Counted from the first letter of the stretch, positions 5,535 through 62,822 are shown. The stretch: 64,000 nt of DNA from an uncultured Candidatus Saccharibacteria bacterium (GCA_964567265.1 CAZMLK010000001.1:15832-79831), one strand, 5' to 3'. Notes: generated from the sequence alone by a model not told the origin. A program made the numbers and translations.

Positions 5535-5891
5535 ATGCAGGATATGAAAAAATTCTTTGTGCTGTATCGCGTGCCGGTCGAAGTAATGGCCGAGTGGAAG
5601 AAGAACACCTCGCCCGAGGAGATGAAGGCCCAGAGCGAGGCCATGGGAGAGAAGATGATGGCGTGGATGGCGAAGAATGAAAAAAGCATCGTTGATAAGG
5701 GGCTGCCGCTCGGGAAGAATACGCGGCTCACGGCAGCAGGTGCTGAGGCGGTCTCAAACGATCTCAACTATTACACCGTCGTCGAAGCCGAGTCGCCTGA
5801 AGATGTCGCCCAGATGTTCAAGGAGAATCCGCATCTCGATATCCCGGGCGCATACCTCGATGTGATGGAGGTGCCCCACGTGGGAATGTAG
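5535..5891 (+). CDS. Hypothetical small soluble protein
   Basis: Internal ATG at 5535 (MQDMKKFFVLYRVPVEVMAEW...) lies in frame within track ORF 5268..5891. The upstream part of that ORF overlaps the preceding gene, so the shorter start is preferred. Confidence 0.45.
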   Translation: MQDMKKFFVLYRVPVEVMAEWKKNTSPEEMKAQSEAMGEKMMAWMAKNEKSIVDKGLPLGKNTRLTAAGAEAVSNDLNYYTVVEAESPEDVAQMFKENPHLDIPGAYLDVMEVPHVGM

Positions 5892-5949
5892 TCCCGGTGT
5901 AAGGTGCCACGGGACTCTGCGTCCTCTAATACATCAGCTTCTAATATTC

Positions 5950-6540
5950 GTGTATATGACAGGTAAAAATGCATTGGTTGCCGCGGGTTCGGTCCTCGTC
6001 ATCGTCCTGCTCGGGTATTTCTTCTTTGCCGGACGTGCATCAAACGAGCTTCCAGTCGATCTGGATCCGACGCCGCAGACCGTCACCCTCTCAGGGACGA
6101 TGGAATGCCTGCCGCATCTGAATACCGACGGGCCGCAGACCGAGGAGTGCGCATTCGGGCTCAAGACCGATGACGGCGTCCACTACGCGGTCAATTTCGG
6201 AGAAGGGGCCGATGCAGCAGTGCTCTTCCAGGGCGGCGCGCATATCACCGCAGACGGATTCGTCGTCATCAAGGAAGCGCTCAGCTCCGACCAGTGGGCG
6301 AAGTACGACATGAAGGGGATCTTCACGATCACGAAGATGATCGACCCGGCTCCGACACCGGGCGGTGCCGCAGGGAAGCTCGACATCAATACCGTGTGCC
6401 GGAGCGCGCTCGCATACATGACCTTCCCGGACGCGGCAAGCGCGGACGCATTCGTCGCAGCTTGCGTCGATGGCAAGCATCCTGAAGTCATCGAGCGGTA
6501 CAAGAAAGACATGGGCCTCGGCGACGGCGCCGCGATCTAA
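5950..6540 (+). CDS. Hypothetical membrane-anchored protein
   Basis: Single N-terminal TM helix (ALVAAGSVLVIVLLGYFFFAG), then a Cys-containing soluble domain. Confidence 0.5.
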   Translation: MYMTGKNALVAAGSVLVIVLLGYFFFAGRASNELPVDLDPTPQTVTLSGTMECLPHLNTDGPQTEECAFGLKTDDGVHYAVNFGEGADAAVLFQGGAHITADGFVVIKEALSSDQWAKYDMKGIFTITKMIDPAPTPGGAAGKLDINTVCRSALAYMTFPDAASADAFVAACVDGKHPEVIERYKKDMGLGDGAAI

Positions 6541-31001: not shown

Positions 31002-31196
31002 ATGCCAAGATACGGTCCGAAGGCGGGAGAGATGGTGGGAAAGGCGATGCATGCGTTCAAGCGCGGGACGCTTCATTCTGGCAGGAATAAGGCGCCCGTA
31101 CACAGCCGCGAACAAGCGATCGCGGTCGGCCTCTCGAAGGCCAGGGCAATAGGAGCTATGGTTCCGAAGCAGCGGAAGCGCGCTCCTGGTCGCTGA
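31002..31196 (+). CDS. Small basic conserved protein (64 aa)
   Basis: MPRYGPKAGEMVGKAMHAFKRGTLHSGRNKAPVHSREQAIAVGLSKARAIGAMVPKQRKRAPGR resembles small conserved basic proteins of unknown function. Confidence 0.45.
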   Translation: MPRYGPKAGEMVGKAMHAFKRGTLHSGRNKAPVHSREQAIAVGLSKARAIGAMVPKQRKRAPGR

Positions 31197-31231
31197 GTCG
31201 AAGAATCGTTTTATACGTTAACTCTGTATCT

Positions 31232-31384
31232 ATGCTCGTCACAATCGCAGCAGTGCTCTTGATTCTCTGGTTGCTCGGCGTCGTCGGCGTCTATTCAATC
31301 GGATGGTTCATCCACGTGCTTCTCGTAATCGCCGTCATCATGTTCCTCATACGGATCATCCAGGGAAGGAACCCGATCCAGTAA
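31232..31384 (+). CDS. Lmo0937-family small membrane protein (50 aa)
   Basis: MLVTIAAVLLILWLLGVVGVYSIGWFIHVLLVIAVIMFLIRIIQGRNPIQ, two hydrophobic helices typical of the lmo0937 family. It is below the track's length cutoff, so it was found by eye. Confidence 0.6.
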   Translation: MLVTIAAVLLILWLLGVVGVYSIGWFIHVLLVIAVIMFLIRIIQGRNPIQ

Positions 31385-31435
31385 CCTTGCTTCAGAGGTT
31401 GGTCGCGGGGATCGTTCGCCTATGAACGGGACCGC

Positions 31436-31476
31436 CAATGCGCACGCTCCTACACACCGGGAGCGTGCGCATTTGT
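31436..31476 (+). terminator. Hairpin terminator
   Basis: caatgcgcacgctcc-tacacacc-gggagcgtgcgcatttg. Confidence 0.55.
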
Positions 31477-31714
31477 GCAGGAAGCGGATATTCAAGCGCG
31501 TGATTTTTTATGAAAAGTTCATCTTGAAGCGGACTGTGCGTCCGAGCATGAAGATGTGCATGCATGAGTTCACGCAAAACTCATGAAAAAGGCATTAAGC
31601 AATATATACGAGTTGAGGGGAAGAAGAGGGAGCGCATACAATTGCGAAGCGGCTTCGCGATCGTTCCATGGGGGAACAGACCGACCGTCCTAGCAACTAA
31701 CACGATTGATACCC

Positions 31715-49598: not shown

Positions 49599-49671
49599 GC
49601 GGATTCCTCCAAATGCTGCCGTCAGCGCAGCTGCGCGACTGGTCGCTTTCTATAATATATACCTATCAGTG

Positions 49672-49941
49672 TCAATGATTAGGTCTGGTTCGTCCCCCGT
49701 CGCTTGGATCCAGGAATCCGGGGGGAATCAGTCGCTCCAAGAGATACAGGATGCCGAAAATGACCGTGATATCATCCAGTTCTCCCAAAAAGGGGATGAA
49801 GTCAGGGATGAGATCGAAAGGAAAGAAAAGATAGAGGATGCCGACGATAGGCAGCACCTTCACGAATAGTGGCGCCCTCGGATCTCGAATGATTCGAGGA
49901 TAGAGCCGGATGAGGGTGAAGGCCCGTCTGAGGAATTTCAT
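49672..49941 (-). CDS. DUF1232 (YkvA-like) small membrane protein
   Basis: DLIPDFIPFLGELDDITVIFGILYL matches the DUF1232 core. Confidence 0.6.
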   Translation of the reverse strand: MKFLRRAFTLIRLYPRIIRDPRAPLFVKVLPIVGILYLFFPFDLIPDFIPFLGELDDITVIFGILYLLERLIPPGFLDPSDGGRTRPNH

Positions 49942-50034
49942 CCGGCTACTATGCCAAATGCTAGATGCGGTTTTGATGAAAGAGAAAAGGCCTCACGCAT
50001 GCGCGAGGCCTTGCGACCGACCAGCCTGTGTCGA

Positions 50035-50346
50035 TCAGGATTGAGTTTGGGACTTGACGCAAGCAGCGACAAGCTTGGCCACGTCGTCCATTATTTTAGA
50101 TCGGAACAGGGGATCATTGAGGAGGGCTTCGGGTAGAATCATCACGTTTTGTTCTGATGCAAAAGTTCTAACCTGCCCAGGGTCATTTGCCCATACAGAA
50201 CCAACTGTAAGCGCATCGTGAACCTCCCCGAGGGTGGTGATTGTCATGCAACTGGGGGAACTATCTACCGTCTGCGCTAGGCCGGTGCCAATTTGAGTGG
50301 CGGTAAGGGCGACGGCCCCAGCAAAACGCCGCATCCAAGGCTTCAT
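50035..50346 (-). CDS. Small secreted Cys-containing protein, paralog A (103 aa)
   Basis: MKPWMRRFAGAVALTATQIGTGLAQTVDSSPSCMTITT...LVAACVKSQTQS. Signal peptide and two conserved Cys. GGAG ribosome-binding site 8 nt upstream. The track ORF 50035..50673 reads through the upstream paralog. Confidence 0.55.
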   Translation of the reverse strand: MKPWMRRFAGAVALTATQIGTGLAQTVDSSPSCMTITTLGEVHDALTVGSVWANDPGQVRTFASEQNVMILPEALLNDPLFRSKIMDDVAKLVAACVKSQTQS

Positions 50347-50384
50347 CTTTACTTCTCCAAAGTATTTCAAGACGATATGCCAGG

Positions 50385-50420
50385 AAATACAATACATATT
50401 ATATCTGTATATGTCAATAA
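50385..50420 (-). promoter_or_regulatory. Sigma-70-type promoter for paralog A
   Basis: Minus strand reads TTGACA (50417..50412), a 17-nt spacer, then TATTGT (50394..50389) preceded by TG (extended -10). Confidence 0.5.
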
Positions 50421-50506
50421 TTCGGTAGGTAGGGGGAAATAGGAAAGGCCTCGCGTATGCGCGAGGCCTTGTGACCGACAGGGTGATCGGTCTCAGTGAC
50501 AAGTGG

Positions 50507-50812
50507 TCAGGGTTGGGACTGAATCTGGCCGCAGAGCGCGACAAGCTTGAGGGCTTCGGCTCTGAATTCGGTCCTGGCCTTCTCATCTCCGAGGATGCTC
50601 TCGCTGAGGACAAGGACATCGCTACGGGACAGGTAGCTAAGGGTGCGGTCGAGACTATTCGTACCCCCAACATTGACTATGGCATCAATATCCGATGGCG
50701 TTACCATCTTCACGCAGCTAGGGGCTGAGGCGTCGGCCTGCATTACCATCCCACCAGCAAAACCGGCCGCAGTTGCCCCTACCAGGGAAAGTACTGCCAT
50801 CCAAGGCTTCAT
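50507..50812 (-). CDS. Small secreted Cys-containing protein, paralog B (102 aa)
   Basis: MKPWMAVLSLVGATAAGFAGGMVMQADASAPSCVKMVT...LVALCGQIQSQP. Same architecture as paralog A. Confidence 0.55.
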   Translation of the reverse strand: MKPWMAVLSLVGATAAGFAGGMVMQADASAPSCVKMVTPSDIDAIVNVGGTNSLDRTLSYLSRSDVLVLSESILGDEKARTEFRAEALKLVALCGQIQSQP

Positions 50813-50850
50813 CTTCACTTCTCCGAAGTGTTTCAGGGCGATATGCCAGG

Positions 50851-50886
50851 AAACATAATACATATTATATATTTATATGTCAAGTG
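50851..50886 (-). promoter_or_regulatory. Sigma-70-type promoter for paralog B
   Basis: Minus strand reads TTGACA (50883..50878), a 17-nt spacer, then TATTAT (50860..50855). GGAG ribosome-binding site upstream of the ATG. Confidence 0.5.
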
Positions 50887-51182
50887 ATTGTGATGGGGAA
50901 TTGAGCTCAGTATTAGCCCTTGCAACGCCCATGCACCTCGGGGTTTTGTGAAGGCCCCTTCATTAAGGGGATTGGCCACCAGTCACTAAGGGGGGATTGT
51001 CCCACGGTCACTAATTCACTTCGCTCATAAGTGCCGCTGGATGGATGAGTCACGGTGAAAATGATTTGGGGAATCATTTTCACCTAAGCCGCAAGCGGCG
51101 ATTTCGCCTCGGTGAATGACGTCAAATCCTGTTTTGTGAATCAGGGGATGTAAAGAAAGTAATATCAATGACGGATTTTTGA

Positions 51183-51232
51183 AAAAAACTCAAAAAGGGA
51201 AGACCGACCGTTGATATAATCTCGGGTCGGTC
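51183..51232 (-). terminator. Rho-independent terminator (minus strand)
   Basis: Minus strand reads gaccgacc-cgagattatatcaac-ggtcggtc followed by ttcccttttt gagttttttt. Confidence 0.6.
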
Positions 51233-51251
51233 TGAAGGTTCTGCTGCCGCG

Positions 51252-51602
51252 CTAGTGGTGCAAGTCGTAATTGCCGATGTCCGTCCACGAAGCCTCCGTA
51301 GGTAGACCTCGTTTGCGTGCCTCGCGCTTCCGGTCCAGCTCGTTGTCGTAATTGCCGATGTCCGTCCACGAAGCCTCCGTAGGTAGACCTCGTTTGCGTG
51401 CCTCGCGCTTCCGGTCCAGCTCGTTGTCGTAATTGGCGATGTCCGTCCATCGGGCCGTTTCCGGCAAGTTGCGAGCCGCAGCGCTGCAGGTTCGACTGGA
51501 CTCGTCGTCAGTGATTCCGGAGCATTCGACCTGGAAATAGCTGGTCGCACCCACGACCACGAGGATGAAGCTCGTGAGTAGTCCGATGAGAATTCGGGGC
51601 AT
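51252..51602 (-). CDS. Small secreted repeat protein (116 aa) containing an in-frame 27-aa tandem repeat
   Basis: N-terminal hydrophobic segment MPRILIGLLTSFILVVVGATSY. NYDNELDRKREARKRGLPTEASWTDIG is repeated twice, plus a degenerate third copy. Confidence 0.5.
   Translation of the reverse strand: MPRILIGLLTSFILVVVGATSYFQVECSGITDDESSRTCSAAARNLPETARWTDIANYDNELDRKREARKRGLPTEASWTDIGNYDNELDRKREARKRGLPTEASWTDIGNYDLHH
51264..51452. repeat. Perfect 81-bp tandem duplication (2 identical copies + diverged third copy)
   Basis: gtcgtaattgccgatgtccgtccacgaagcctccgtaggtagacctcgtttgcgtgcctcgcgcttccggtccagctcgtt occurs at 51264 and again at 51345 with no mismatches. A third copy starts at 51426 and diverges after ~25 bp. 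Confidence 0.85.
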
Positions 51603-51889
51603 GTCAGTTACTCAATACTGTGGACACTGTGATGATTGTAGCATGAATAAATACTTTGTCAATACCCACAATCTCCAGAGGAGATTGTCTTCCCGCCATA
51701 GATTCGCTTTGCTCGTACGCGCCTTGTGACCCCGACTCGAACCGAGGTTCTTCCTTAGAGGACGGTACACCTTGCAGACATATTTAGTTAAGGGATCAGT
51801 CACGAGTCACTAAGGATTGTTCGTCGCAGGCTCCTCAAACCCTAAGTGCTCGCGACCCCGTCTCAAAACTAAAAATGTGTGGACAGCAT

Positions 51890-51935
51890 ACGAAAAAGTT
51901 GAAACCGCCTCGAAGCATGGATGCTTGAGGCGGTT
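51890..51935 (-). terminator. Rho-independent terminator (minus strand)
   Basis: aaccgcctcgaagcatggatgcttgaggcggtt hairpin, with a T-tract on the minus strand (ttcaactttttcg). Confidence 0.6.
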
Positions 51936-51950
51936 ACGTTGCTGAGAGGG

Positions 51951-52175
51951 TCACCTATCTGTGGGGTAGCCATCCATGAAGCGAGGCAGTTCAGATGATC
52001 CCGCTGGAGCTATGTAGTTGTAGCACCAGCACTGGATATCCCCTCCATCATCTGGCTGTATGTGGAGCTCATCGCGATGCTTATCCCAGGAGGTGACGAT
52101 GCCGGTTGTGGAGATGAGTTGCACACGTTTCCCCACGCATTCTTTGCGAGGCGGAACACATTTTGTTGAACACAT
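51951..52175 (-). CDS. Small Cys-rich protein (74 aa)
   Basis: MCSTKCVPPRKECVGKRVQ...DIQCWCYNY has six Cys. Start at internal ATG 52175, preceded by a TTGACA-N17-TAAGGT promoter (52244..52216). Confidence 0.4.
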   Translation of the reverse strand: MCSTKCVPPRKECVGKRVQLISTTGIVTSWDKHRDELHIQPDDGGDIQCWCYNYIAPAGSSELPRFMDGYPTDR

Positions 52176-52288
52176 GATTACACCTGTAACCTGTAGTTGA
52201 TACGAAACTAAGTGGACCTTAGCATTTTTTATATGTATTGTCAATAGCACGAAACCGCCCGAACGGCGGTTTCGTCATTGTAAATGTG

Positions 52289-52678
52289 TGGAGATGGGGG
52301 GATCGAACCCCCGTCCGAACTGGGGCGGGATCGCGATCTACGAAGCGTAGTCACCTTTGTTCCTTTAGGCCGTGCTGGTCGAAGGTGACCAAATGCAGCA
52401 CGTGCCGAGCTTCCTTAATTTAGGTTCCGTGCCAAAGCGCTCATGGAACCGATTTCAGTTTTTATGACACCGTCATCACCCTACTGAACGACGGATGATG
52501 GGATGGCTTATGCAGTTGCGTAAGCGAACGCGAAGTCATTCATCTGGAATGGAGACAAAACTGACTTTGCGCGTGCGAGAGTGTTCTTTGCACTTGTTGT
52601 TTCCAGATTTTTAGGAAGGTCTGGACTTCCGCTTCGCCCGACAATCCGTAAGACCAATCCGTCGAAACTGACATCCCC
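52289..52678 (-). ncRNA. ssrA: tmRNA (ssrA), ~390 nt, directly downstream of smpB
   Basis: 5' end GGGGATGTCAGTTTCGACGGATTGG (compare E. coli GGGGCUGAUUCUGGAUUCGACGGGAUUUG). 3' end TTCGGACGGGGGTTCGATCCCCCCATCTCCA, a tRNA-like T-arm plus an acceptor strand complementary to the 5' GGGGATG. An internal ORF ends ...NDFAFAYATA-TAA, a plausible degradation tag. Confidence 0.8.
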
Positions 52679-52742
52679 GCTTCCTGCATTCAGGAGAATG
52701 CAGGAAGCGGGAACCACCTACGGTTTCGATGACGTCGTACGG

Positions 52743-53189
52743 CTAGCGCGCTTTCATCTCTCGGTCCAGATCGCGTTTCGTATCCCTGGTCTTCAGAGTC
52801 TCGCGCTTGTCGAATTTCTTCTTGCCGCGCACGATGGCAATCCGGGCCTTGATGTAGCGGCCCTTACTATACATTGAAATTGGGACGATTGTCAACCCTT
52901 TGGCGCCCTCTGCACCCAACACCTTTTCGAGCTCTTTCTTCGAGAGAAGGAGTCGCCGGGTGCGGTCAGGTTCATAGCTTGTCGGGGCATTCTTCGGCTG
53001 GTGGGCAGGAATCGAGGCGCCAATCAGATAGGCCTCGTTCCCGCGGATGATGACCCGGGCGCCCTCGAGCGTCCCATGTCCGCCGCGGACCGACTTCACC
53101 TCGAAGCCGAACAGCTCGATACCCGCCTCGAATTCCTCAAGGATTTCATAGTTGAAATGGGCTTTTCGGTTCTGGACGAAGGTCGTCAT
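52743..53189 (-). CDS. smpB: SsrA-binding protein SmpB
   Basis: NRKAHFNYEILEEFEAGIELFGFEVKS...GKKKFDKRETLKTRDTKR, a full-length match to the SmpB family. Confidence 0.9.
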   Translation of the reverse strand: MTTFVQNRKAHFNYEILEEFEAGIELFGFEVKSVRGGHGTLEGARVIIRGNEAYLIGASIPAHQPKNAPTSYEPDRTRRLLLSKKELEKVLGAEGAKGLTIVPISMYSKGRYIKARIAIVRGKKKFDKRETLKTRDTKRDLDREMKAR

Positions 53190-53285
53190 GGCTCTACCTT
53201 AGCATGCCGGGGAGGACGCCGCATAAGGGTTTTTCGGTCTCCTCGAGACCCTGTTTCCTCCATGATTTGCTATACTATTCCCATT

Positions 53286-54320
53286 ATGGATACATATACA
53301 CTCAAGAAAACGATAGACAAATTAATGGAAATGCCGAAAGGAATCCTTGCGGCCGACGAGAGCAACCGTTCGATGGATAAGCGGCTCGATGCGGAAGGGA
53401 TAGAGACGAGTGTCGAGATGCGTCGGGATTACCGCGAGCTCCTCCTCGGGGTCGATAAGCTCGAAGACTCGATCAGCGGCGTCATTTTCTATGACGAGAC
53501 GCTTAGGCAGAATCATTCGAACGGCACGCCGTTCCCGAAGTTTCTTGATATGAAGGGAATCGTGCCCGGCATCAAGGTTGATACCGGTACCACCAATCTT
53601 CCATTCTTCCCTGAGGAGAAGATCACCGAAGGTCTTGACGGGCTCGCGCTCCGACTCGTCGACTACAAGCATCTCGGCGCGGAGTTCGCGAAGTGGCGGG
53701 CCGTCATCACGATCGGGAACGGCATCCCGACGGATACGTGCATTCTTGCGAACGCGACGGTGCTCGCGCGCTATGCGGCCCTCTGCCAGGAGGCCGATAT
53801 CGTCCCGATGGTCGAGCCGGAAGTATTGCTTGATGGAAAACACAACATCCAGATGACGGAGGAAACACTTTCCCGCACGCTTGATGTCATCTTCCAGGAG
53901 CTCAGGCGCTACAAGGTCTCGCTGCCGCATACGATCCTCAAGACGGCCATGGTACTCCCTGGGAAAGACTGCAGCGATCAGGCAACCGACGAGGATATCG
54001 CCGAGCGCACCGCGCGCGTCCTCAAGGAACATGTACCTGCTGATATTGGTGGCGTCGTCTTCCTTTCAGGCGGACAGGGCCCGAAAGAATCGACTGCACG
54101 TCTCCAGGCGATTATGAAAAAAGGTCCCTTCGCGTGGCCGCTCAGCTTCTCGTATTCACGCGCGGTGCAGATGCCCGCCCTCCATATATGGAAGGGGAAA
54201 GCTTCGAATGTCGAGGCCGCACGCGTGGCATTCATGGACCGTGTGCAGATGAACGTGCTCGCCCGAAAAGGCGAATACGATGCCGCGAAGGATGCCTACG
54301 GAACCGAGCAAGAGGAATGA
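53286..54320 (+). CDS. fba: Fructose-bisphosphate aldolase, class I
   Basis: GILAADESNRSMDKRL (class I FBA N-terminal motif GILAADES). IVPMVEPEVLLDG contains the Schiff-base lysine region. Start at ATG 53286, alternative 53262. Confidence 0.8.
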   Translation: MDTYTLKKTIDKLMEMPKGILAADESNRSMDKRLDAEGIETSVEMRRDYRELLLGVDKLEDSISGVIFYDETLRQNHSNGTPFPKFLDMKGIVPGIKVDTGTTNLPFFPEEKITEGLDGLALRLVDYKHLGAEFAKWRAVITIGNGIPTDTCILANATVLARYAALCQEADIVPMVEPEVLLDGKHNIQMTEETLSRTLDVIFQELRRYKVSLPHTILKTAMVLPGKDCSDQATDEDIAERTARVLKEHVPADIGGVVFLSGGQGPKESTARLQAIMKKGPFAWPLSFSYSRAVQMPALHIWKGKASNVEAARVAFMDRVQMNVLARKGEYDAAKDAYGTEQEE

Positions 54321-54332
54321 TGTCGCCTCAAT

Positions 54333-54917
54333 ATGTTTGATTTCGACAAAGCCATCGAATTCACGCGGCTTCTTGAGCGCTTCCAGAAGGTGCGACGCGT
54401 CGCATATGTTTCCGGGGAAGATCGGATGGAGAACGACGTCGAGCACAGCTACAAGCTCGCCATGATGGCGTGGTACTTGGTCGAGCGCGAGCAGCTTCCG
54501 CTCGACACGTCGCTGGTCGTCAAATACGCGATGGTCCACGATCTCGTCGAGGCGTATGCGGGCGACACGGATGCCTGGGACGCGGAAGGGCAGAAGACCA
54601 AGCACGAGCGGGAAGAAAAAGCCCGCCTCCAGCTTATTGCGGAATTCAAGGAATTCCCGGAGCTGCACAGCCTTATCGAACGCTACGAGAACAAGACTGA
54701 CGAGGAGGCCCGATTCGTGTATGCGCTCGACAAGCTCTTTTACATGTTCACCGAATACCTCGCCGAAGGTCGGACAATGCGGAAGCAGAATCTCGAATAC
54801 GGCATGGAATTCAAATTGAAGGAGGAAAAAACGCGCGTTCATGAGCAGGTGCACGCCTGGTGCCTTGAGGTGTTCAGGCGCCTCGATCAGGAGCGTGATC
54901 GGCTATGGGGGAAATAG
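54333..54917 (+). CDS. HD-domain phosphohydrolase (YfbR-like)
   Basis: VEHSYKLAMMAWYL...MVHDLVEAYAGD is an HD motif (H...HD...D). Confidence 0.7.
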   Translation: MFDFDKAIEFTRLLERFQKVRRVAYVSGEDRMENDVEHSYKLAMMAWYLVEREQLPLDTSLVVKYAMVHDLVEAYAGDTDAWDAEGQKTKHEREEKARLQLIAEFKEFPELHSLIERYENKTDEEARFVYALDKLFYMFTEYLAEGRTMRKQNLEYGMEFKLKEEKTRVHEQVHAWCLEVFRRLDQERDRLWGK

Positions 54918-55092
54918 CTGCTTGATAAAAGACAGGGAAGTGTCATGCTAGGGGCGTGCAGAAAGGGATGCGGGAAGCCTGTGGCACCTCGGAGCCCGAG
55001 ATTCCTGTATCCGCTGTTTCTCATGCGCGCGTGGCCTCCGGGACTCCAGGAGGTATGCGATGGACAATTAATACCGTAACCGTTCTGTTTTT

Positions 55093-56259
55093 ATGAAAAC
55101 GATTCTGAAATTATTTGGGATCTCGATGCTTTTTTTGGTCGTTGCGAATACCGCAGACGCATCCACCTACTTTGCTGGAGAGAATTACACGCTTCCGGCA
55201 GGGCAGTCAGTCTCTGGCAACCTGTATGCAGGTGGAGGGAATGTGGCGATTCTCGGTTCGGTTTCAGGGGACGCGGTCGTCGGCGGTGGCAAAGTGCTCG
55301 TGAATGGCCCTGTCTCTGGGGATATCCTTGCGGGTTCGGGCAATATTGATATTCTCGCGCCTGTGGGCGGCGATGTCCGCTCCGCGAGCGGAGATATCAC
55401 TATCGGCGCCAATGTCGGCGGGGACGTGTTTGTCGCAGGTGGCACGGTCCAGATTCTTGCAGGCACGGTCGTGAATGGTGATGTCATGGTCGCCGGCGGC
55501 ACTATCACCATCGACGGCACCGTAAATGGCAACGTGACCGTCTATGGTGGTGAAGTCTCGCTTGGCGGCGCGATTAAAGGGAACGCGCATCTTCGAGGTA
55601 ATCAGAAGCTGACGATCGGGACAGGCGCGACGGTCGGCGGCACCCTCCTCTACGAATCCCCGTCATCACTGGATATCACCGAGGGTTCAGTCGCGGGTGG
55701 TGTTACGTACAAGTCGACTGCAAAGCAGGACGTCAATAAGGGGGCAATGGCAGCCCTTGCAGTTTTCCTCGGTACGCTCTTCCTGATCGGACTTGGGGGA
55801 ACGGCGCTCGGAAGCGTCTTCTTTGCGACGGCGTTCCAGAAGGATTCGCTGGAATTGATGGAATATGCGGTCACGCGTTTCGGTACCGCAGTATTGGTCG
55901 GGCTTGTGTTCCTCGTAATCGTACCGATTGCCGCGATTCTGATGATGTTCACGATCGTTGGCATCGTGCCTGCGGTGTTCGTGCTCCTTACGTACATCCT
56001 CTTCCTCATGGTTGCGAAGGTATATGCATGCATCCTTGTGGGTGCATTTCTCTCGCATCGCTTTAAGGGAAGTATCCACGTGAACTGGAAGTGGGCGCTT
56101 CTTGGTACGGTACTGCTTGCCCTCGTGACTTTCGTACCGGTTCTTGGTCCAATCGTCGGATTCCTGTTCACACTTGCAGCGCTCGGCGCGCTTGCTGAGC
56201 GGCTTCGGAACCGCTGGAAGACACGGAACGATGGTGAAATGAAAATGGAAATCTTGTAA
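55093..56259 (+). CDS. Membrane protein with N-terminal beta-helical (bactofilin/DUF4097-like) repeat ectodomain and C-terminal 4-TM domain
   Basis: Signal peptide. More than 10 repeats of the G(D/N)V.V.GG type (GDAVVGGGKVLVNGPVSGDILAGSGNIDI...). Hydrophobic C-terminal half. Confidence 0.55.
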   Translation: MKTILKLFGISMLFLVVANTADASTYFAGENYTLPAGQSVSGNLYAGGGNVAILGSVSGDAVVGGGKVLVNGPVSGDILAGSGNIDILAPVGGDVRSASGDITIGANVGGDVFVAGGTVQILAGTVVNGDVMVAGGTITIDGTVNGNVTVYGGEVSLGGAIKGNAHLRGNQKLTIGTGATVGGTLLYESPSSLDITEGSVAGGVTYKSTAKQDVNKGAMAALAVFLGTLFLIGLGGTALGSVFFATAFQKDSLELMEYAVTRFGTAVLVGLVFLVIVPIAAILMMFTIVGIVPAVFVLLTYILFLMVAKVYACILVGAFLSHRFKGSIHVNWKWALLGTVLLALVTFVPVLGPIVGFLFTLAALGALAERLRNRWKTRNDGEMKMEIL

Positions 56260-56269
56260 GAGGGAAGTT

Positions 56270-56313
56270 GAAAACACCCCGGCCCGCGCAAGCGGGGCCG
56301 GGGTGTTTTCTTG
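56270..56313 (+). terminator. Rho-independent terminator
   Basis: aaaacaccccggcccgc-gcaa-gcggggccggggtgtttt followed by cttg. Confidence 0.7.
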
Positions 56314-56342
56314 AATAAGCAAATGAGCGTCCGGTAGTGGTG

Positions 56343-56376
56343 TATATAAAACGAAAGGCTCTACAAAATGTAGAGC
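56343..56376 (-). terminator. Minus-strand rho-independent terminator with no annotated upstream CDS
   Basis: Minus strand reads ggctctaca-tttt-tgtagagcc followed by tttcgttttatatac. Confidence 0.5.
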
Positions 56377-56567
56377 CGGGACGATGGGGTGGGGGTGAGA
56401 TTCAAAAGTGAGAATCTCGAAGGAACTGGGTGGTTAGTTGGGGAGGGAGTGGATTGGATGCTCAAGAAGTGAACGGCTTTGGTTGTGGATGAAAGTTCAT
56501 CCGAACTGAAGCGTCGCTTCGAGTGTCCAAAGGACTCTCTATAACTAACTTCCTATAGGGTACTCCT

Positions 56568-57284
56568 ATGCTAGAATCCTGTCAAGCGTTTTCTATGAGA
56601 AAAAAGATACCTGTGGATAACTCAAAAGACCTCTTTTTGACGAGAAAAAAGAGGGCAGGGGAGCTGCTTCGGAAACTGAAGCAGTTGTTCCCCAATGCCG
56701 ACATGATCCTCGAGTACAGTAACCCGTGGGAGCTGGTCGTGGCTGTGCAGCTCTCGGCGCAGTGCACGGATAAGAAAGTGAATGAGGTCACAAAGACGCT
56801 CTTCAAGAAGTACCCCGCTCTCGAGGACTACCTCACTGCCCTTCCCCGCGAATTCGAGAGGGATATTTTCCAGACCGGATATTATCGCAACAAGACGCGG
56901 AACATCCTCGCGGCAGCGAAGGTGCTCAAGGAGAAGTACGATGGCCGACTTCCCTCTTCTGTACGAGAACTTCTGACGATTCCGGGTATCGGCCGGAAGA
57001 CAGCGAACGTCGTGCTCGGCAACGCCTATGGCATTGCCGAGGGTATCGCCGTCGATACCCATGTGCACCGCTTCGCCGTGCGCTTCGATCTCACTGACCA
57101 TCCGAGGAATGTTGTAAAGATCGAGCAGGACCTGATGAAGCTGATCCCGAAGAAGGAGTGGTTCCGCTTCACCTACCTCGCGATCGAATATGGCCGCAAA
57201 ATCGCTCCATCACGGACGTATGATATTTCAAAGGACCCTCTGATTAAGATCTATCCTCCTGCCGGACTGCGGTTCAAAAAATAA
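56568..57284 (+). CDS. nth: Endonuclease III-like HhH-GPD DNA glycosylase
   Basis: LVVAVQLSAQCTDKKVNEVT, LLTIPGIGRKTANVVL (helix-hairpin-helix) and VDTHVHR (catalytic Asp). The C-terminal 4Fe-4S Cys cluster is absent. Confidence 0.75.
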   Translation: MLESCQAFSMRKKIPVDNSKDLFLTRKKRAGELLRKLKQLFPNADMILEYSNPWELVVAVQLSAQCTDKKVNEVTKTLFKKYPALEDYLTALPREFERDIFQTGYYRNKTRNILAAAKVLKEKYDGRLPSSVRELLTIPGIGRKTANVVLGNAYGIAEGIAVDTHVHRFAVRFDLTDHPRNVVKIEQDLMKLIPKKEWFRFTYLAIEYGRKIAPSRTYDISKDPLIKIYPPAGLRFKK

Positions 57285-57508
57285 TGCAAACGACAGGTTC
57301 CTTCCATCCATAAGTGAATGTGTTGTCACATGAGCTCACCATCTTCACAGAATGGCGGCATTCAAGAAGTGGCGTACAATGGATGCATGAGAGATTACGC
57401 GAAGGTCGGCGGCAAGAACGGTGCGCCTGGATACCGGACGCCGTCCCGGTTCATCCACCGTCGACCGATTGACGTGCAGTATTTGAAGGCAAAGTCATCC
57501 AATTCCCC

Positions 57509-58204
57509 ATGGAGAAAAAGCGCAAAGTAGCCATCTTCGATATCGACGGGACGATCTTCCGTTCCTCCCTCCTCATAGAGCTCATCGAGGAATTCATCAC
57601 ACAAGGGGTATTCCCCGCATCGACGAGGGATGAGTTCGATCGGCAGTACCGGAAATGGCATGAACGGAAAGGCAGCTATGACGAGTATATCGACGCGCTC
57701 ATCACGTCGTTCCTGAAGCACATCAAAGGCGTGCGCTATGAAGACATGACCCTGGTCTCGAAGCTCGTGATCGGACGCGAGAAGGACCTTGTGTATCGCT
57801 ATACACGGGATCTTGTCGGCGAGCTCAAAGAGAAAGGCTACTACCTCCTCGCGGTCTCGCAGTCGCCGAAGATGGTCCTTGACGGCTTCTGCAAGAGCTG
57901 GGGCTTCGACAAGGTGTATGGACGCATCTACGAGGTCGGCCCCGACAATCGGTTCACAGGCAATATCGAGGATTTGCACCTGATCGCGAATAAGGCGAAC
58001 ATCGTGAAGCGTGCAGTCGAGAAGGAAGGTTTGACGCTCGCAGGATCGATCGGCGTCGGCGATACGGATGGTGACATCCCGTTCCTCGAGATCGTCTCGA
58101 AGCCGATCTGCTTCAATCCAAACAGCACCCTCTATCGCCACGCGAAACGCAACAAATGGAAAGTGATCGTCGAGCGGAAGGATGTTGTGTATGAAATCGA
58201 TTGA
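57509..58204 (+). CDS. HAD-superfamily hydrolase, subfamily IB
   Basis: Motif I FDIDGTI and motif IV GVGDTDGDIPFL. Confidence 0.7.
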   Translation: MEKKRKVAIFDIDGTIFRSSLLIELIEEFITQGVFPASTRDEFDRQYRKWHERKGSYDEYIDALITSFLKHIKGVRYEDMTLVSKLVIGREKDLVYRYTRDLVGELKEKGYYLLAVSQSPKMVLDGFCKSWGFDKVYGRIYEVGPDNRFTGNIEDLHLIANKANIVKRAVEKEGLTLAGSIGVGDTDGDIPFLEIVSKPICFNPNSTLYRHAKRNKWKVIVERKDVVYEID

Positions 58205-58421
58205 ACCGGCTTCGGGGGTCATGGTAAGGTAACTATTGGTTCGTTCTTTTCGATATTCCCCAAGAACCACTGTCGGACCTATGTCTGATGGCGGCGTCTG
58301 GGATTTTTTTTCGTCTCGTCTCCAGCCCGATTGATGTCGGCGGAGGTGATCAACAAAAGCGCCCAGAAGACGAGGCGCTTTTGTTGTTTTCGGGCAGATA
58401 GTTGCTGCTATACTTATATGC

Positions 58422-59648
58422 ATGCAACTCACGCGCCGCTCGTTATTCCTCACGTGCATCCTTGTGGTCGTCGTGGCGGGAGTCGTCTGGGCCGCGCCGC
58501 TGGTCATGAGGACGCTTACGGGCGTCCTGCCGCTCTTGTCGCGCGCACATATTCCGCTCCTGCCCGGTACCGAGAATGCGGCCATTATCGTCCCTGCGCT
58601 CACGATTCCCGCCCCGTTCGCTATCCAGGTCTTCGCGAAGGATCTCGGCGATCCGCGCGTCATGGTACGAGATCCTGCCGGAAAGCTCGTGGTAAGCCTC
58701 CCAACCGAGGGCAAGGTCGTGGCGCTTCCCGATGTGAATGCCGACGGCGTCGCGGATAATGTTATCGTGGTCGCGGAGGGACTCAAGAAGCCGCACGGCA
58801 TCGCGTTCCACGACGGGAAGATCTACATAGCGGAAACCGACCAGGTCGCGGCCTATGACTATGACGAAGAATCGTTCCGCGCGACCGGAAAGCAGAAGAT
58901 CGTCGATCTCCCGACCGACGGCTACAATCAGCATTTCACCCGCACGCTCCATGTCCTCAAAGAAGCGAGTGGAGACCGGCTTCTCGTATCGGTCGGCTCT
59001 TCCTGCAATGTCTGCCATGAGAATGATCCAAAGCGCGCCTCGATACTCTTGATGAATTTTGACGGCACGAACGTGACCACCTTCGCAAAAGGCCTCCGCA
59101 ACTCCGTATTCATGGCGACGAATCCTTCGACGGGCGCGCTCTGGGCCACGGAGATGGGCCGCGATCTCCTCGGGGATGACATTCCTCCAGACGAAATCAA
59201 TATCATCAAGAAGGGAAAGGACTACGGCTGGCCGATCTGCTACGGCAAGAATATCCATGACACGGCATTCGACAAGAACACCTACATCCGTGCTCCCTGT
59301 ACCGAACCCTACGAGCAGCCCTCTGTAATCGATATCCCCGCGCATTCCGCGCCGCTCGGGCTCGCATTCGTTCCCGAGGAGGGCTGGCCGGCTGCATATC
59401 AATTCAACCTCTTCGTCGCGTACCATGGTTCGTGGAATCGGAGCGAGCCGACCGGGTACAAGGTCGTGCGCTATAAGTTCGCTGAGGACGGCACGTTCCT
59501 TGGCGTCGAGGATTTCCTGACGGGATTTTTCAAGGATGATGAGGTGCTCGGCCGGCCGGCGGATATACTCATCGAGCCGAATGGTATGATGTTCGTATCA
59601 GATGACCGCGCAGGCATGATTTATCAAATCACGCTCAGCTCGAAATAA
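58422..59648 (+). CDS. PQQ-dependent sugar dehydrogenase (sorbosone dehydrogenase family)
   Basis: TM anchor. KPHGIAFHDGKIYIAETDQV and GWPICYG motifs of the GSDH/SGL beta-propeller family. Confidence 0.7.
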   Translation: MQLTRRSLFLTCILVVVVAGVVWAAPLVMRTLTGVLPLLSRAHIPLLPGTENAAIIVPALTIPAPFAIQVFAKDLGDPRVMVRDPAGKLVVSLPTEGKVVALPDVNADGVADNVIVVAEGLKKPHGIAFHDGKIYIAETDQVAAYDYDEESFRATGKQKIVDLPTDGYNQHFTRTLHVLKEASGDRLLVSVGSSCNVCHENDPKRASILLMNFDGTNVTTFAKGLRNSVFMATNPSTGALWATEMGRDLLGDDIPPDEINIIKKGKDYGWPICYGKNIHDTAFDKNTYIRAPCTEPYEQPSVIDIPAHSAPLGLAFVPEEGWPAAYQFNLFVAYHGSWNRSEPTGYKVVRYKFAEDGTFLGVEDFLTGFFKDDEVLGRPADILIEPNGMMFVSDDRAGMIYQITLSSK

Positions 59649-60382
59649 TGCCTGGTTCCATGAAGACATTTCTTATCATTTCTATCGTACTCGCGCTCTT
59701 CGCGGTACTCGGGGTCTACCAGCTCTTTATCCGCGAACCGGCGGAGCTTATACGAACCACGACTGCCTTCGAGCGGAAGACCGAGGGCGGCACGCCGCGC
59801 ATCCTCATTGTCGGCGATAGCACGGGGGTGGGCGTCGGCAGCAGCGCGCCGATCCTCTCGATCGCGGGACGGCTCGGGACGACCTTCCTCCGCGCCTACA
59901 TCGAGAATCACGCGGTCTCGGGCGCGCGGACGGCAGAAGTCGTCGAGCAGTTCAAGGATACGCCGATCCACTCATTCGATATCGTTCTCATACAGGTGGG
60001 CGCGAACGATGTGACGCATTTCACGAAACCAGACGAGCTCCGCGCGAGCATCGCTGCGCTCCTTGTGCGCGCGCATGATGTTGGGGCGCATGTGTTCCTG
60101 ATGACAAGCGGCAGCGTCGGGCATGCACCGCTCTTCATCTATCCCTTCAGCAAGATATTCACGAATCGCTCGCTCCTGGTCCGCGACATCTTCACGGAAG
60201 AAGCCGATAAGGTACAGGCGCACTATATCGATCTCTACCAGCCCCGCGAGGATGATGTCTTCCTGACCGATCCGAAGAAATACTTCGCAGCGGACTCATT
60301 TCATCCGAGCGAGGAAGGCTATGGCGTCTGGTACGAGCAGGTGAAGCAGGCCCTGATTGCCGAGAAGCTCCTCCGGCAGTAA
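59648..60382 (+). CDS. SGNH/GDSL-family hydrolase
   Basis: ILIVGDSTG (block I GDS) and DSFHPSEEGY (block V DxxH). N-terminal TM anchor. Confidence 0.7.
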   Translation: MPGSMKTFLIISIVLALFAVLGVYQLFIREPAELIRTTTAFERKTEGGTPRILIVGDSTGVGVGSSAPILSIAGRLGTTFLRAYIENHAVSGARTAEVVEQFKDTPIHSFDIVLIQVGANDVTHFTKPDELRASIAALLVRAHDVGAHVFLMTSGSVGHAPLFIYPFSKIFTNRSLLVRDIFTEEADKVQAHYIDLYQPREDDVFLTDPKKYFAADSFHPSEEGYGVWYEQVKQALIAEKLLRQ

Positions 60383-60385
60383 TCT

Positions 60386-61201
60386 GTGCCGATGGAACGT
60401 TCGGTTGCCGCATTCAAGAAGCAGGTTTGGAATTATTATCGGAAACACGGCCGCGGGCAGCTGCCGTGGCGCCAGACTGCTAATCCGTACCACGTGCTCG
60501 TGTCCGAGATCATGCTCCAACAGACGCAGGTGGATCGCGTGATCCCGAAGTACGAGGCATTCCTCCGAAAATTCCCAAGCACCCGAGTGCTTGCGAAGGC
60601 GCCTCTTGCCGATGTCCTCAGGGAGTGGCAGGGACTCGGATACAACCGCCGCGCAAAATTCTTGCATGAGGCTGCGAAGGCAGTAGAGAGCCGGCATGGC
60701 GGAGCCATGCCGGCTGATCTTCCATCCCTCCTTGTGCTTCCAGGCATCGGGCCGTATACCGCGGGCGCCGTCATGGCATTTGCATACGATAAGCCCGTCG
60801 TCTTTCTCGATACCAATATCCGGAACGTATTCATCCACCACTTTTTTCCAAAAAAACAGAACGTGCATGATCGGGAGCTCATGCCGATCATTGGCTCTGC
60901 ACTCGACAGGAAGCGGCCGCGCGAGTGGTACTCCGCGCTCATGGACTACGGGACGCATTTGAAAGCCACCGGGCAGGGAAAGAACGCGCGGAGCGCCCAC
61001 TATGCGAAGCAGTCGAGATTCAGCGGGTCCGACCGCGAGATCCGCGGCCGGATGCTCACGCTCTTGTCTGAGAAATCAGTACCCGAGGATTTGCTCCTCA
61101 AGCATGGAAGCGCTGACCGATTGCGCGCGGAAGCGCAGCTTCAGAAGCTCCTCAAAGAAAAAATGGTCAGCCGTAAAGGGAAGACCATTCATCTCGGATA
61201 G
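60386..61201 (+). CDS. MutY-like A/G-specific adenine glycosylase (HhH-GPD), lacking recognisable Fe-S loop
   Basis: LPWRQTANPYHVLVSEIMLQQTQVDRVIPKYEAFLRKFP is a canonical MutY N-terminus. LVLPGIGPYTAGAVMAFA is an HhH motif. Confidence 0.7.
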   Translation: MPMERSVAAFKKQVWNYYRKHGRGQLPWRQTANPYHVLVSEIMLQQTQVDRVIPKYEAFLRKFPSTRVLAKAPLADVLREWQGLGYNRRAKFLHEAAKAVESRHGGAMPADLPSLLVLPGIGPYTAGAVMAFAYDKPVVFLDTNIRNVFIHHFFPKKQNVHDRELMPIIGSALDRKRPREWYSALMDYGTHLKATGQGKNARSAHYAKQSRFSGSDREIRGRMLTLLSEKSVPEDLLLKHGSADRLRAEAQLQKLLKEKMVSRKGKTIHLG

Positions 61202-61215
61202 TACGAAGGATCGCA

Positions 61216-62382
61216 TTAATCGCGCGGCAGATGCACGGCGATCGCGACGCCGGCGGTCATGAGAAGTGCGGTCAGGATGAACATCCCTGAAAAGCCGAAG
61301 AGCGGAAGCACGAATGCGGCGACGATCGGAGTGAGGACGTAGCCGCCGGGGCGGAGCATGCGGAAGAGGCTGATCTGCTCCGCGTCCTTGCCGCCGACCC
61401 GCCTGAAGAATGCGCTTTCCGAAACCACTTCGACAATGGATGCGCCTGTGTGCGCCGCGAGGAGGACGATACCCCAGAGCGCGATATTCGCATGCCCGAG
61501 GAACGCGAGCGCGCAGGCACCGCCGGCGAGAAGGAGGAAGCCGAACGCGAAGAGCCGCCGCTCACCGAAGTGATTGATCACGCGTCCGATCGGCAGCTCG
61601 AAAAGTACCAGGGGCACGAGCATGATCGAGAAGATGGTCCCGATTTCCGGCCACTCGAATCCGATCTGGAGGAGATAGAGCGGGAGGTAGATGACGGTGA
61701 CGGAGAAGAAGATGCGGAGGAGCGTGTGGAGCACGAATACCGTTCGTGCTCCAGGAGTCTTCGAAAGCTCACGGAATGCGCCACTAATCGACGGCCGCGG
61801 ATACTCCTGATCATTGAACTTGCGGAAGCGGAGCGATATGAGGAGGACAAAGGGGATGAGGCAGGCGGCCGCGATCGCATATGCCGAGAAATAGCCGAAT
61901 GAGTCGATGATGAGGCCGCCGAGGATGGGTGAGAAGAAGAGCGCGGCGTTCGCGCTCGTGAGCGTCGCGCCACGGACCGCGCCTGTCATGCGTTCCTCCT
62001 CGACCGTGCTCTCGATGAAGATGTCCATCGTATAGAGGAGGAGGATGGTGAGGGACCAGTAGCAGATGAAGAGCGCGCCCGCGCCGCCGAGCGAGGTCGC
62101 AGCGCCGAAGGCGAGGACGGTGTAGATCTCGAGCGATGAGAAGATGATGGCGAGCGCGAATGCGCCGAACCACCGGAGGAGGTAGGGCACGATGAGCAGC
62201 ATCCCGACCGCCGAGGCCGCGCCGAGCATGTAGAGGAATCCGACGTCGGAGGTGTTGCCGAACTTCGCGAGGAAGCTCGAGTTTATGAAGATCGCGGAGA
62301 AGATATGGAGCGCGAGGAAGAAATTGGCGCCGAAGAGAACCCGGATCGGACTCGACCGGGTGATGCGTATCGCGGTGTCCAT
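61216..62382 (-). CDS. MFS transporter
   Basis: Twelve TM helices with MFS loop motifs. Confidence 0.75.
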   Translation of the reverse strand: MDTAIRITRSSPIRVLFGANFFLALHIFSAIFINSSFLAKFGNTSDVGFLYMLGAASAVGMLLIVPYLLRWFGAFALAIIFSSLEIYTVLAFGAATSLGGAGALFICYWSLTILLLYTMDIFIESTVEEERMTGAVRGATLTSANAALFFSPILGGLIIDSFGYFSAYAIAAACLIPFVLLISLRFRKFNDQEYPRPSISGAFRELSKTPGARTVFVLHTLLRIFFSVTVIYLPLYLLQIGFEWPEIGTIFSIMLVPLVLFELPIGRVINHFGERRLFAFGFLLLAGGACALAFLGHANIALWGIVLLAAHTGASIVEVVSESAFFRRVGGKDAEQISLFRMLRPGGYVLTPIVAAFVLPLFGFSGMFILTALLMTAGVAIAVHLPRD

Positions 62383-62417
62383 AGCTCTCTCAGTGTAGCA
62401 TCGAGGAGCAGTGTATT

Positions 62418-62472
62418 AAAAAGAGAAACCGCCCGCAGAGTGCGGGGGTTTCCCTCGCACTCTGCGGGCGGC
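62418..62472. terminator. Bidirectional hairpin terminator
   Basis: ccgcccgcagagtgcg-ggggtttccct-cgcactctgcgggcgg. Confidence 0.6.
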
Positions 62473-62483
62473 AATTGAAGGAA

Positions 62484-62750
62484 TCAGTCTACAAGGACGT
62501 CAAGTCCAAAAACGTCACCTGCGTACCGAGTAAGGCTACTGACCAGTTTGTTAGGGCAGGTGACCGCAATAGTATAAACGCCGTCATCATTGACCGGCAC
62601 ACCGCCTACGTTCTGGACGAACGCTTCGACACGCCCTGACCTTGGGTACAAGCATCGCATATGCTCTGCACATACGAATAGGTCCCGATGAGTGAGATTT
62701 GATGCAGTCGGGATTCGGCATCGAATCGTAAGTGTTGTGGGCTCAGGCAT
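62484..62750 (-). CDS. Small Cys-containing hypothetical protein (88 aa)
   Basis: Start at MPEPTTLTIRCRIP (ATG 62750). A strong promoter TTGACA (62822..62817)-N17-TAAATT (62799..62794) and a GGGAG ribosome-binding site lie upstream. The track ORF is over-extended. Confidence 0.45.
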   Translation of the reverse strand: MPEPTTLTIRCRIPTASNLTHRDLFVCAEHMRCLYPRSGRVEAFVQNVGGVPVNDDGVYTIAVTCPNKLVSSLTRYAGDVFGLDVLVD

Positions 62751-62793
62751 TTGAAACTCCCATTTGCTTGGAACCAGAAGAAAATCTCCAGAG

Positions 62794-62822
62794 AATTTAA
62801 CACGATAATTGTATATTGTCAA
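62794..62822 (-). promoter_or_regulatory. Sigma-70-type promoter
   Basis: Minus strand reads TTGACAatatacaattatcgtgtTAAATT. Confidence 0.5.

Follow-up and report, generated by a model that had tools for sequence, protein, structure and literature searches.

The four TTGACA promoters that lie between positions 50,385 and 62,822 of a 64,000-nucleotide (nt) stretch of DNA from an uncultured bacterium (GCA_964567265.1, CAZMLK010000001.1:15832-79831; the whole stretch is referred to here as the window) are probably ordinary strong promoters of the housekeeping sigma-70 (RpoD) type, placed in front of unrelated small accessory genes and stable RNAs. The original prediction had seen in them a co-regulated set of small Cys-containing proteins or, alternatively, a set that arrived from a donor with canonical signals. 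The resemblance among the four units is more plausibly explained by all of them approaching the consensus of the lineage itself than by a dedicated regulon, and as a Cys-protein regulon the finding does not hold. Numbering refers to the whole window, and all the promoter units listed are on the minus strand. The genes are named parA and parB (paralogues A and B), sixC (the "six-Cys" gene), c88 (the gene of 88 amino acids [aa]), and rep116 (the 116-aa repeat-protein gene).

All four promoters were recovered on the minus strand at the positions originally given, each with an exact TTGACA, a 17-nt spacer, and a TAnnnT hexamer, and the six bases that adjoin the -35 box on its 3' side are TATACA, TATAAA, ATACAT, and ATATAC, as described. 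The c88 promoter (62794..62822; TTGACA-17-TAAATT) carries a gTGt extended -10 element and has the best score of the window, and the sixC promoter (52216..52244; TTGACA-17-TAAGGT) has a TGc extended -10 element. The parA promoter (50389..50417; TTGACA-17-TATTGT) is a duplicate of the parB promoter (50855..50883; TTGACA-17-TATTAT), with 26 of 29 nt matching. The set thus comprises three independent promoters and not four, since A and B are one duplicated unit. The list was also incomplete: comparable sites, likewise with an exact TTGACA as the -35 hexamer, are present at 51662 (rep116), 52895 (transfer-messenger RNA [tmRNA]), 49675 (LamG), and 56585 (a candidate noncoding RNA).

Sites of this kind are rare in the window. 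The pattern TTGACA-N17-TANNNT gave 5 matches, against 0.16 +/- 0.42 in shuffles, and TTGACA itself occurs just 12 times on the two strands together, with 8 of the 12 copies on the minus strand between 49.6 and 62.8 kb. Position-weight scanning of 44 upstream regions of the window, with random 150-nt pieces as the control, placed the same promoters at the top: the six highest scores belong to c88 (17.7), rep116 (16.9), parB (16.9), tmRNA (15.5), parA (14.5), and sixC (13.8), followed by the next-best gene at 13.4, and the 99th percentile of the random pieces is 11.7. Frequent occurrence of the motif in front of unrelated genes, which would have marked it as commonplace, was not found within the 64 kb, where these promoters are exceptional. 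The -10 box is separated from the ATG by 40 to 43 nt in the four leaders.

Comparison with related DNA at ~85% nucleotide identity (L085 and L087) revealed that hexamers of the orthologous promoters are intact, both of them in parB, while the third codon positions of the genes differ by 36 to 49%; sixC and parA have no orthologue there. The c88 promoter in L087 conserves the -35 box, the adjoining ATATA, and GTGTTAA, and its -10 box reads TAAGGT, as at sixC. For parB, 25 of 29 nt of the promoter core and 38 of 42 nt of the leader are the same in L085. The four sites are probably real promoters, and they are exceptional within the window.

The TTGACA/TATAAT consensus is clearly native to the lineage, as judged from the promoter of the tmRNA gene (ssrA; 52286..52678, minus strand; identified with ARAGORN and Rfam, 114 bits). 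This promoter (52866..52895; TTGACA-18-TATAGT) is located inside smpB (52743-53189, minus strand), within the codons for L-T-I-V-P-I-S-M-Y-S, and the codon choices that produce it have a joint probability of 2.8e-4 in this genome, against codon bias. Across 42 Paceibacteria species with GC contents of 31 to 55%, the Leu codon is TTG in all 42, the -35 box is TTGACA in 34, and the -10 box is TATAAT in 30; the spacing is always 18 nt, and in the Paceibacteria species compared the promoter is found 127 to 284 nt upstream of the mature 5' end of tmRNA. Since a consensus promoter maintained within smpB codons points to a native signal, a foreign donor would not be needed to account for the canonical signals of the four units. 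The predicted tag peptide of this tmRNA is unusually long, at 27 aa (AKNTLARAKSVLSPFQMNDFAFAYATA).

The host background makes these promoters conspicuous. The SmpB protein of the window is at most 61 to 66% identical to the proteins of species-level genomes, all of them Parcubacteria-type metagenome-assembled genomes, and the GC content of the window is 56%; the host is a member of the Paceibacteria/Parcubacteria group of the Patescibacteria (Candidate Phyla Radiation [CPR]). Most genes of the window have no Shine-Dalgarno site, and many first genes are instead preceded by TATACT, TATAGT, TACACT, or TAAGGT, often with a TGn in front, at 4 to 11 nt from the end of the -10 box to the start codon. 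The TAnnnT pattern is enriched at positions -18 to -12 of the window genes (16 versus 6.8 expected; P = 0.0016), the gene starts in this statistic being our own open reading frame (ORF) calls. For smpB, the window has TGcTAAGGT 6 nt before the ATG, and the 10-mer ATGCTAAGGT is common to this -10 box and that of sixC. Across 54 other Paceibacteria species, smpB displays a sharp TAnnnT peak starting at -12 to -10 (36 hits, mostly at -12), and a Shine-Dalgarno site was seen in one. This suggests that leaderless mRNA transcribed from a -10 box only is the default of this Paceibacteria genome. The pattern resembles group C of GeneMarkS-2, defined by frequent leaderless transcription, for example in Actinobacteria and Deinococcus (PMC6028130), in having a Pribnow box 6 to 10 nt before the start codons of first genes and absent or rare Shine-Dalgarno sites; the category differs from the present case in that it fits the background of this genome and not the promoters in question. 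In the literature searched, no report of leaderless expression in Patescibacteria/Parcubacteria was found.

The TTGACA promoters stand out because most genes appear to be -10-only and leaderless, and in all likelihood the units that carry them are a minority class, marked by a -35 box, a leader, and a Shine-Dalgarno site. The full combination, with a strong Shine-Dalgarno site, is found in parA, parB, c88, and LamG; sixC has the -35 box and the leader with AGGTG only, and rep116 has the -35 box and the leader with no clear Shine-Dalgarno site. The GGAG/GGGAG site described at 8 to 9 nt in each of the four leaders is accordingly only partly borne out, given that sixC has no GGAG (its AGGTG is 5 nt from the ATG) and that the GGGAG of c88 is there but 6 nt from the ATG.

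From the sequence anatomy, the statistics, the conservation, and the presence or absence of units between strains, which were observed directly, we infer transcription, promoter strength, leaderless status, and the mechanism of insertion. Each promoter would head a monocistronic unit, in which a leader of ~33 to 36 nt that contains a Shine-Dalgarno site is followed by a small ORF and then by an intrinsic terminator. The RNA polymerase holoenzyme would recognize TTGACA and TAnnnT 17 bp apart, aided by the AT-rich spacer, and the TGn extended -10 element would add to this recognition in sixC, c88, and rep116. Transcription would start ~7 nt downstream of the -10 box, ribosomes would load at the Shine-Dalgarno site, and the hairpin past the stop codon would end transcription, with high and probably constitutive expression as the expected outcome.

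The proteins encoded by these units have little in common. The c88 gene (62484..62750, minus strand) encodes 88 aa with 4 Cys and no signal peptide, has its GGGAG Shine-Dalgarno site before the ATG, and is followed by an intrinsic terminator (62418..62473, minus strand), a hairpin with a T-run that is conserved in L087. Its orthologue in L087 (P0004) is 62 to 63% identical, is syntenic between genes for RNase J and a major facilitator superfamily (MFS) protein, and keeps all 4 Cys, and the substitutions per codon position (0.28/0.19/0.49) follow a coding pattern. By this comparison, c88 is a real gene. The sixC gene (51951..52175, minus strand) encodes 74 aa with no signal peptide, is absent from L085, and ends at an intrinsic terminator of the same build (51895..51935, minus strand); its product was described as having six Cys, and 5 were counted. 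A single homologue was found among 1.84 billion representatives, P0005, which is 45 to 46% identical (E value, 8e-7) and contains no Cys. P0005 comes from another small-genome assembly, where its gene also has a TTGAAA-17-TATAAT promoter and its own terminator.

The parB gene (50507..50812, minus strand; terminator at 50435..50470, minus strand) encodes 101 aa, and the parA gene (50035..50346, minus strand; terminator at 49977..50012, minus strand) encodes 103 aa; L085 has no second copy corresponding to parA. Three sequences of this family are known; they share two conserved Cys and, as assessed by eye, a signal peptide at the N terminus, and their middle part is hypervariable. The two paralogues are 90% identical over the 86 nt from the -35 box to codon 5 and 89% identical in their terminators, versus 31% in the protein bodies; upstream of the -35 box, they show no relationship. 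Read in this way, parA/parB is a duplicated secreted-protein cassette whose flanks are conserved and whose core has diverged, and the conserved flanks (window 49960-50910) point to recombination or strong selection around a diversifying secreted protein. A hairpin enclosing the Shine-Dalgarno site in the parA and parB leaders, predicted with one compensatory change, was set aside after it proved not significant against shuffles and disrupted in L085.

Searches for relatives of the small proteins gave little. Scans against Pfam, PHROGs, and NCBIfam returned no match; word-indexed protein searches returned no more than the query protein, a paralogue, or one orthologue, and nothing for sixC; and tblastn against 80 Paceibacteria smpB loci detected no homologues. 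Scans of viral contigs gave nothing for parA/parB or c88, and a weak, seed-biased match between sixC and a phage ORF sharing HIQPDDGG was not relied on. The one match from a metagenome scan with the LamG protein, at 27% identity, was of no use. AlphaFold models were of low confidence (predicted local distance difference test [pLDDT] values of 58 for c88 and 49 for parB), too low for a fold search. The codon usage of the small ORFs is atypical, with a GC content at third codon positions (GC3) of 0.50 to 0.63 versus 0.71 for native genes and codon scores of -0.13 to 0.11 versus a native mean of 0.36; the annotated frame is the best-scoring of the six in every unit. The public contig that carries sixC and c88 does not have them called as genes. 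On present comparisons, the small-ORF genes are lineage specific and fast evolving.

A shared cis element TTGACA(A)TATACA, through which one regulator would co-induce small Cys proteins as a stress or secreted-peptide regulon, is in our judgment very unlikely to explain the set. The extension reduces to the 5-mer ATACA, which occurs at offsets within 2 nt in three independent spacers, with a shuffle P value of 0.004 when position is constrained and 0.04 when it is not; the motif was, however, chosen post hoc, after inspection, and its three promoters were picked from at least seven that are similar. The orthologues do not retain it. The c88 spacer in L087 reads ATATAAATATA / TTGACAATATAAATATAGTGTGTTAAGGT, and the parB spacer, TATAAATA in the window, reads TTGACAAGTATACATATAATATGTATTAT in L085, with the motif moved by 2 nt. 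Orthologous promoters conserve the -35 box and the AT-rich tract adjoining it, together with the TG region and the -10 box. An AT tract directly after the -35 box is general in bacterial spacers, according to a cross-species study in which the spacer altered promoter strength up to 600-fold (PMC12641261). Because the orthologues do not keep ATACA in place and such a tract is generic, we conclude that the proposed TATACA-like extension, an AT tract that varies among orthologues, probably belongs to a strong core promoter instead of being an operator. Dropped as well was a reading of the AT-rich spacers, made by eye, as XerC/D dif sites, for which there was no real match.

The protein side of the same proposal fares no better. 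The proteins fall into three unrelated families with no known domains, signal peptides are seen only in parA and parB, and the Cys-free homologue of sixC indicates that Cys is no family trait. The same promoter type is found on tmRNA, the RNA candidate, LamG, and rep116, and there is no regulator gene nearby. In favor of the proposal, all the proteins exceed the genome mean in Cys content, but only sixC and c88 do so markedly. Another proposal, that some of the units, notably sixC, are small regulatory RNAs with incidental ORFs, is extremely improbable. It draws on the sixC and c88 genes skipped by the gene caller of the public contigs, on the low codon scores, and on the occurrence of the same promoter type at a noncoding RNA candidate; it is opposed by the coding substitution pattern and conserved Cys of c88, by a protein-level homologue of sixC in a genome of very different DNA composition, by the annotated frame being the best of six in every unit, and by correctly spaced Shine-Dalgarno-like sites.

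Several observations weigh against the reading of these sites as ordinary housekeeping promoters. ATACA lies within 2 nt of one offset in three independent spacers (P ~0.004, post hoc); the four leaders are nearly equal in length, with a uniform 40 to 43 nt between the -10 box and the ATG; and the products of sixC (6.8%) and c88 (4.5%) are Cys-rich against 0.71% genome-wide. Jointly, these three points lend common control, as in a regulon, some plausibility. Two of the -10 boxes, TAAGGT and TATTGT, depart strongly from consensus. How rare such promoters are was assessed over 64 kb of a genome of ~622 kb, about a tenth, and the leaderless statistic depends on gene starts that we called ourselves.

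Three of the four noted promoters, those of parA, parB, and sixC, lie within 2 kb directly 3' of tmRNA, in a region that differs between strains. In L085, the layout is tmRNA, an inverted copy of the tmRNA 3' end, TTAGTGAC-type repeats, and then one B-like gene, with no sixC, rep116, or parA. An 11-bp direct repeat, TCCACACATTT, overlaps the tmRNA 3' end (52282..52292, minus strand) and recurs just past the sixC terminator (51873..51883, minus strand). It has exactly two copies in the window versus 0.03 expected, and they bracket the sixC cassette only. The bases that follow the distal repeat (TTTAG) resemble the unoccupied site past tmRNA in L085, an empty site that is not clean, being rearranged and holding the inverted tmRNA-end copy. 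The sixC cassette (window 51890-52285) has 0 single-nucleotide polymorphisms (SNPs) in strains L003 and L004, which are ~99% identical elsewhere; the expectation is ~3 to 4 per strain. The sixC unit has the look of a site-specific insertion. No integrase or recombinase was found from tmRNA to the conserved flank, only small ORFs, DUF1232, and LamG. By this comparison, the stretch 3' of tmRNA that holds sixC, rep116, and parA varies between strains, and part of the set is recently gained or lost; c88 and parB, syntenic and with promoters kept in a relative, are the older residents.

These observations bear on the proposal that the whole set is foreign, with horizontal transfer from donors that have canonical -35, -10, and Shine-Dalgarno signals explaining the difference by itself, which we regard as quite unlikely. 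The donor origin raised in the original prediction survives for a part of the set: sixC, rep116, and parA are missing from a relative at ~85% identity, the codon scores lie around or under the 5th percentile for pieces of native genes, and GC3 is low. The repeat of the tmRNA end around the sixC cassette, the lack of SNPs in that cassette between two ~99%-identical strains, and a different private cassette with a TTGACA-18-TATATT promoter in a relative agree with it as well. For the set as a whole, it is opposed by the synteny and retained promoters of c88 and parB and by the consensus being native to the class, as the tmRNA promoter indicates. Searches of viral, metagenome, and protein sequences yielded no donor, only the one CPR homologue of sixC, and the stretch between tmRNA and the conserved flank has no integrase gene.

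A wider hypothesis would separate two architectures in this CPR lineage: a leaderless core genome without -35 boxes and full-consensus, leadered units on stable RNAs and on mobile promoter-ORF-terminator mini-cassettes. Such cassettes would move between strains, pile up at the tmRNA 3' end and at other intergenic sites, be inserted by a recombinase encoded elsewhere, and supply fast-evolving secreted or Cys-rich accessory proteins. In this full form, it seems to us rather unlikely.

Some genomic islands integrate at the 3' end of ssrA, for example CP4-57 in E. coli and VPI-1 in Vibrio cholerae. The present stretch resembles such islands in its position directly 3' of tmRNA, in the direct repeat of the tmRNA end at its far boundary, in its variability between strains, and in its atypical composition. 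It differs from them in its size of ~0.4 to 1.8 kb, in having no integrase or mobility gene, in a repeat of just 11 bp, and in being made of self-contained promoter-ORF-terminator units. Small, single-gene, strain-variable units set side by side also recall the gene cassettes of integrons. Those cassettes are, however, promoterless, end in attC, and lie beside intI, whereas each unit described here brings a promoter and a terminator of its own, and neither attC nor intI was seen; an integron-like array was rejected on these grounds. As promoters, the sites share with the consensus sigma-70/sigma-A promoters of E. coli and Firmicutes, including those with an extended -10 element (TGn/TRTG), the TTGACA box, a spacer of 16 to 18 bp, TAnnnT, the TG, and the AT tract (PMC12641261). 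They differ in being a small minority amid seemingly -10-only leaderless genes and in some odd -10 boxes, such as TAAGGT.

The rules of promoters and translation starts are poorly known for the CPR/Patescibacteria, most of which are uncultured. If the contrast described here holds genome-wide, gene finders for such genomes should expect leaderless starts, and the rare full-consensus promoters would point to highly expressed small RNAs and to accessory genes that callers miss. In addition, the tmRNA 3' end emerges as a strain-variation hotspot of this ~0.6-Mb genome.

Traces of rearrangement are seen at several points around the cassettes. In L085 (positions 214-332), an inverted copy of the final ~27 nt of tmRNA lies just past the tmRNA terminator hairpin and may be a trace of recombination at that site. 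The TTAGTGAC-type repeats (CTTAGTGACTnGTGACTnATCC) occur in the window at 50969-51014, 51793-51814, and 51055-51083, only between cassettes. A 29-nt perfect palindrome, GTGAAAATGATT-CCCC-AAATCATTTTCAC, which L085 does not have, interrupts one TTAG/GTGAC junction.

Of the further units with the same promoter type, rep116 (51252..51602, minus strand) encodes 116 aa with an N-terminal hydrophobic helix and perfect 81-bp tandem repeats and is not found in L085. Its promoter (51635..51662; TTGACA-16-TACAAT) has a TGc extended -10 element and the score of 16.9 given above. Two perfect 81-bp repeats and a partial third occupy 51264-51449 of the window, and public assemblies of the same organism break exactly at these repeats. 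The probable LamG promoter (49647..49675, minus strand) combines the exact TTGACA with a noncanonical -10 box, either TAGAAA at 17 nt or TATAGA at 15 nt; at 17 bp, the site fails the requirement for T at the sixth position of the -10 box. In L085, 35 of 36 nt of this promoter are the same.

The candidate noncoding RNA unit (56348..56585, minus strand) provides the fifth TTGACA-N17-TANNNT match, TTGACA-17-TACCCT, and would give an RNA of ~200 nt ending at an intrinsic terminator. It is ~96 to 97% identical to L087, against ~85% for the adjoining genes, and its predicted fold has an energy of -60.7 kcal/mol (z = -8.2) with two C-rich single-stranded stretches. The unit contains no ORF of at least 40 aa, matches nothing in Rfam, and has no copy among 80 other loci from Paceibacteria; with Rfam at a permissive threshold, tmRNA alone was matched. 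Elsewhere in the window, a 554-nt gap in the crude ORF map (31152-31706) has no ORF of at least 70 aa and no tRNA or Rfam match. The private cassette of L087, at positions 5800-6110 there, consists of the TTGACA-18-TATATT promoter, an ORF for 55 aa ending in a hydrophobic tail, and a terminator, and the corresponding position in the window (57285-57508) holds ~100 nt of unrelated sequence instead.

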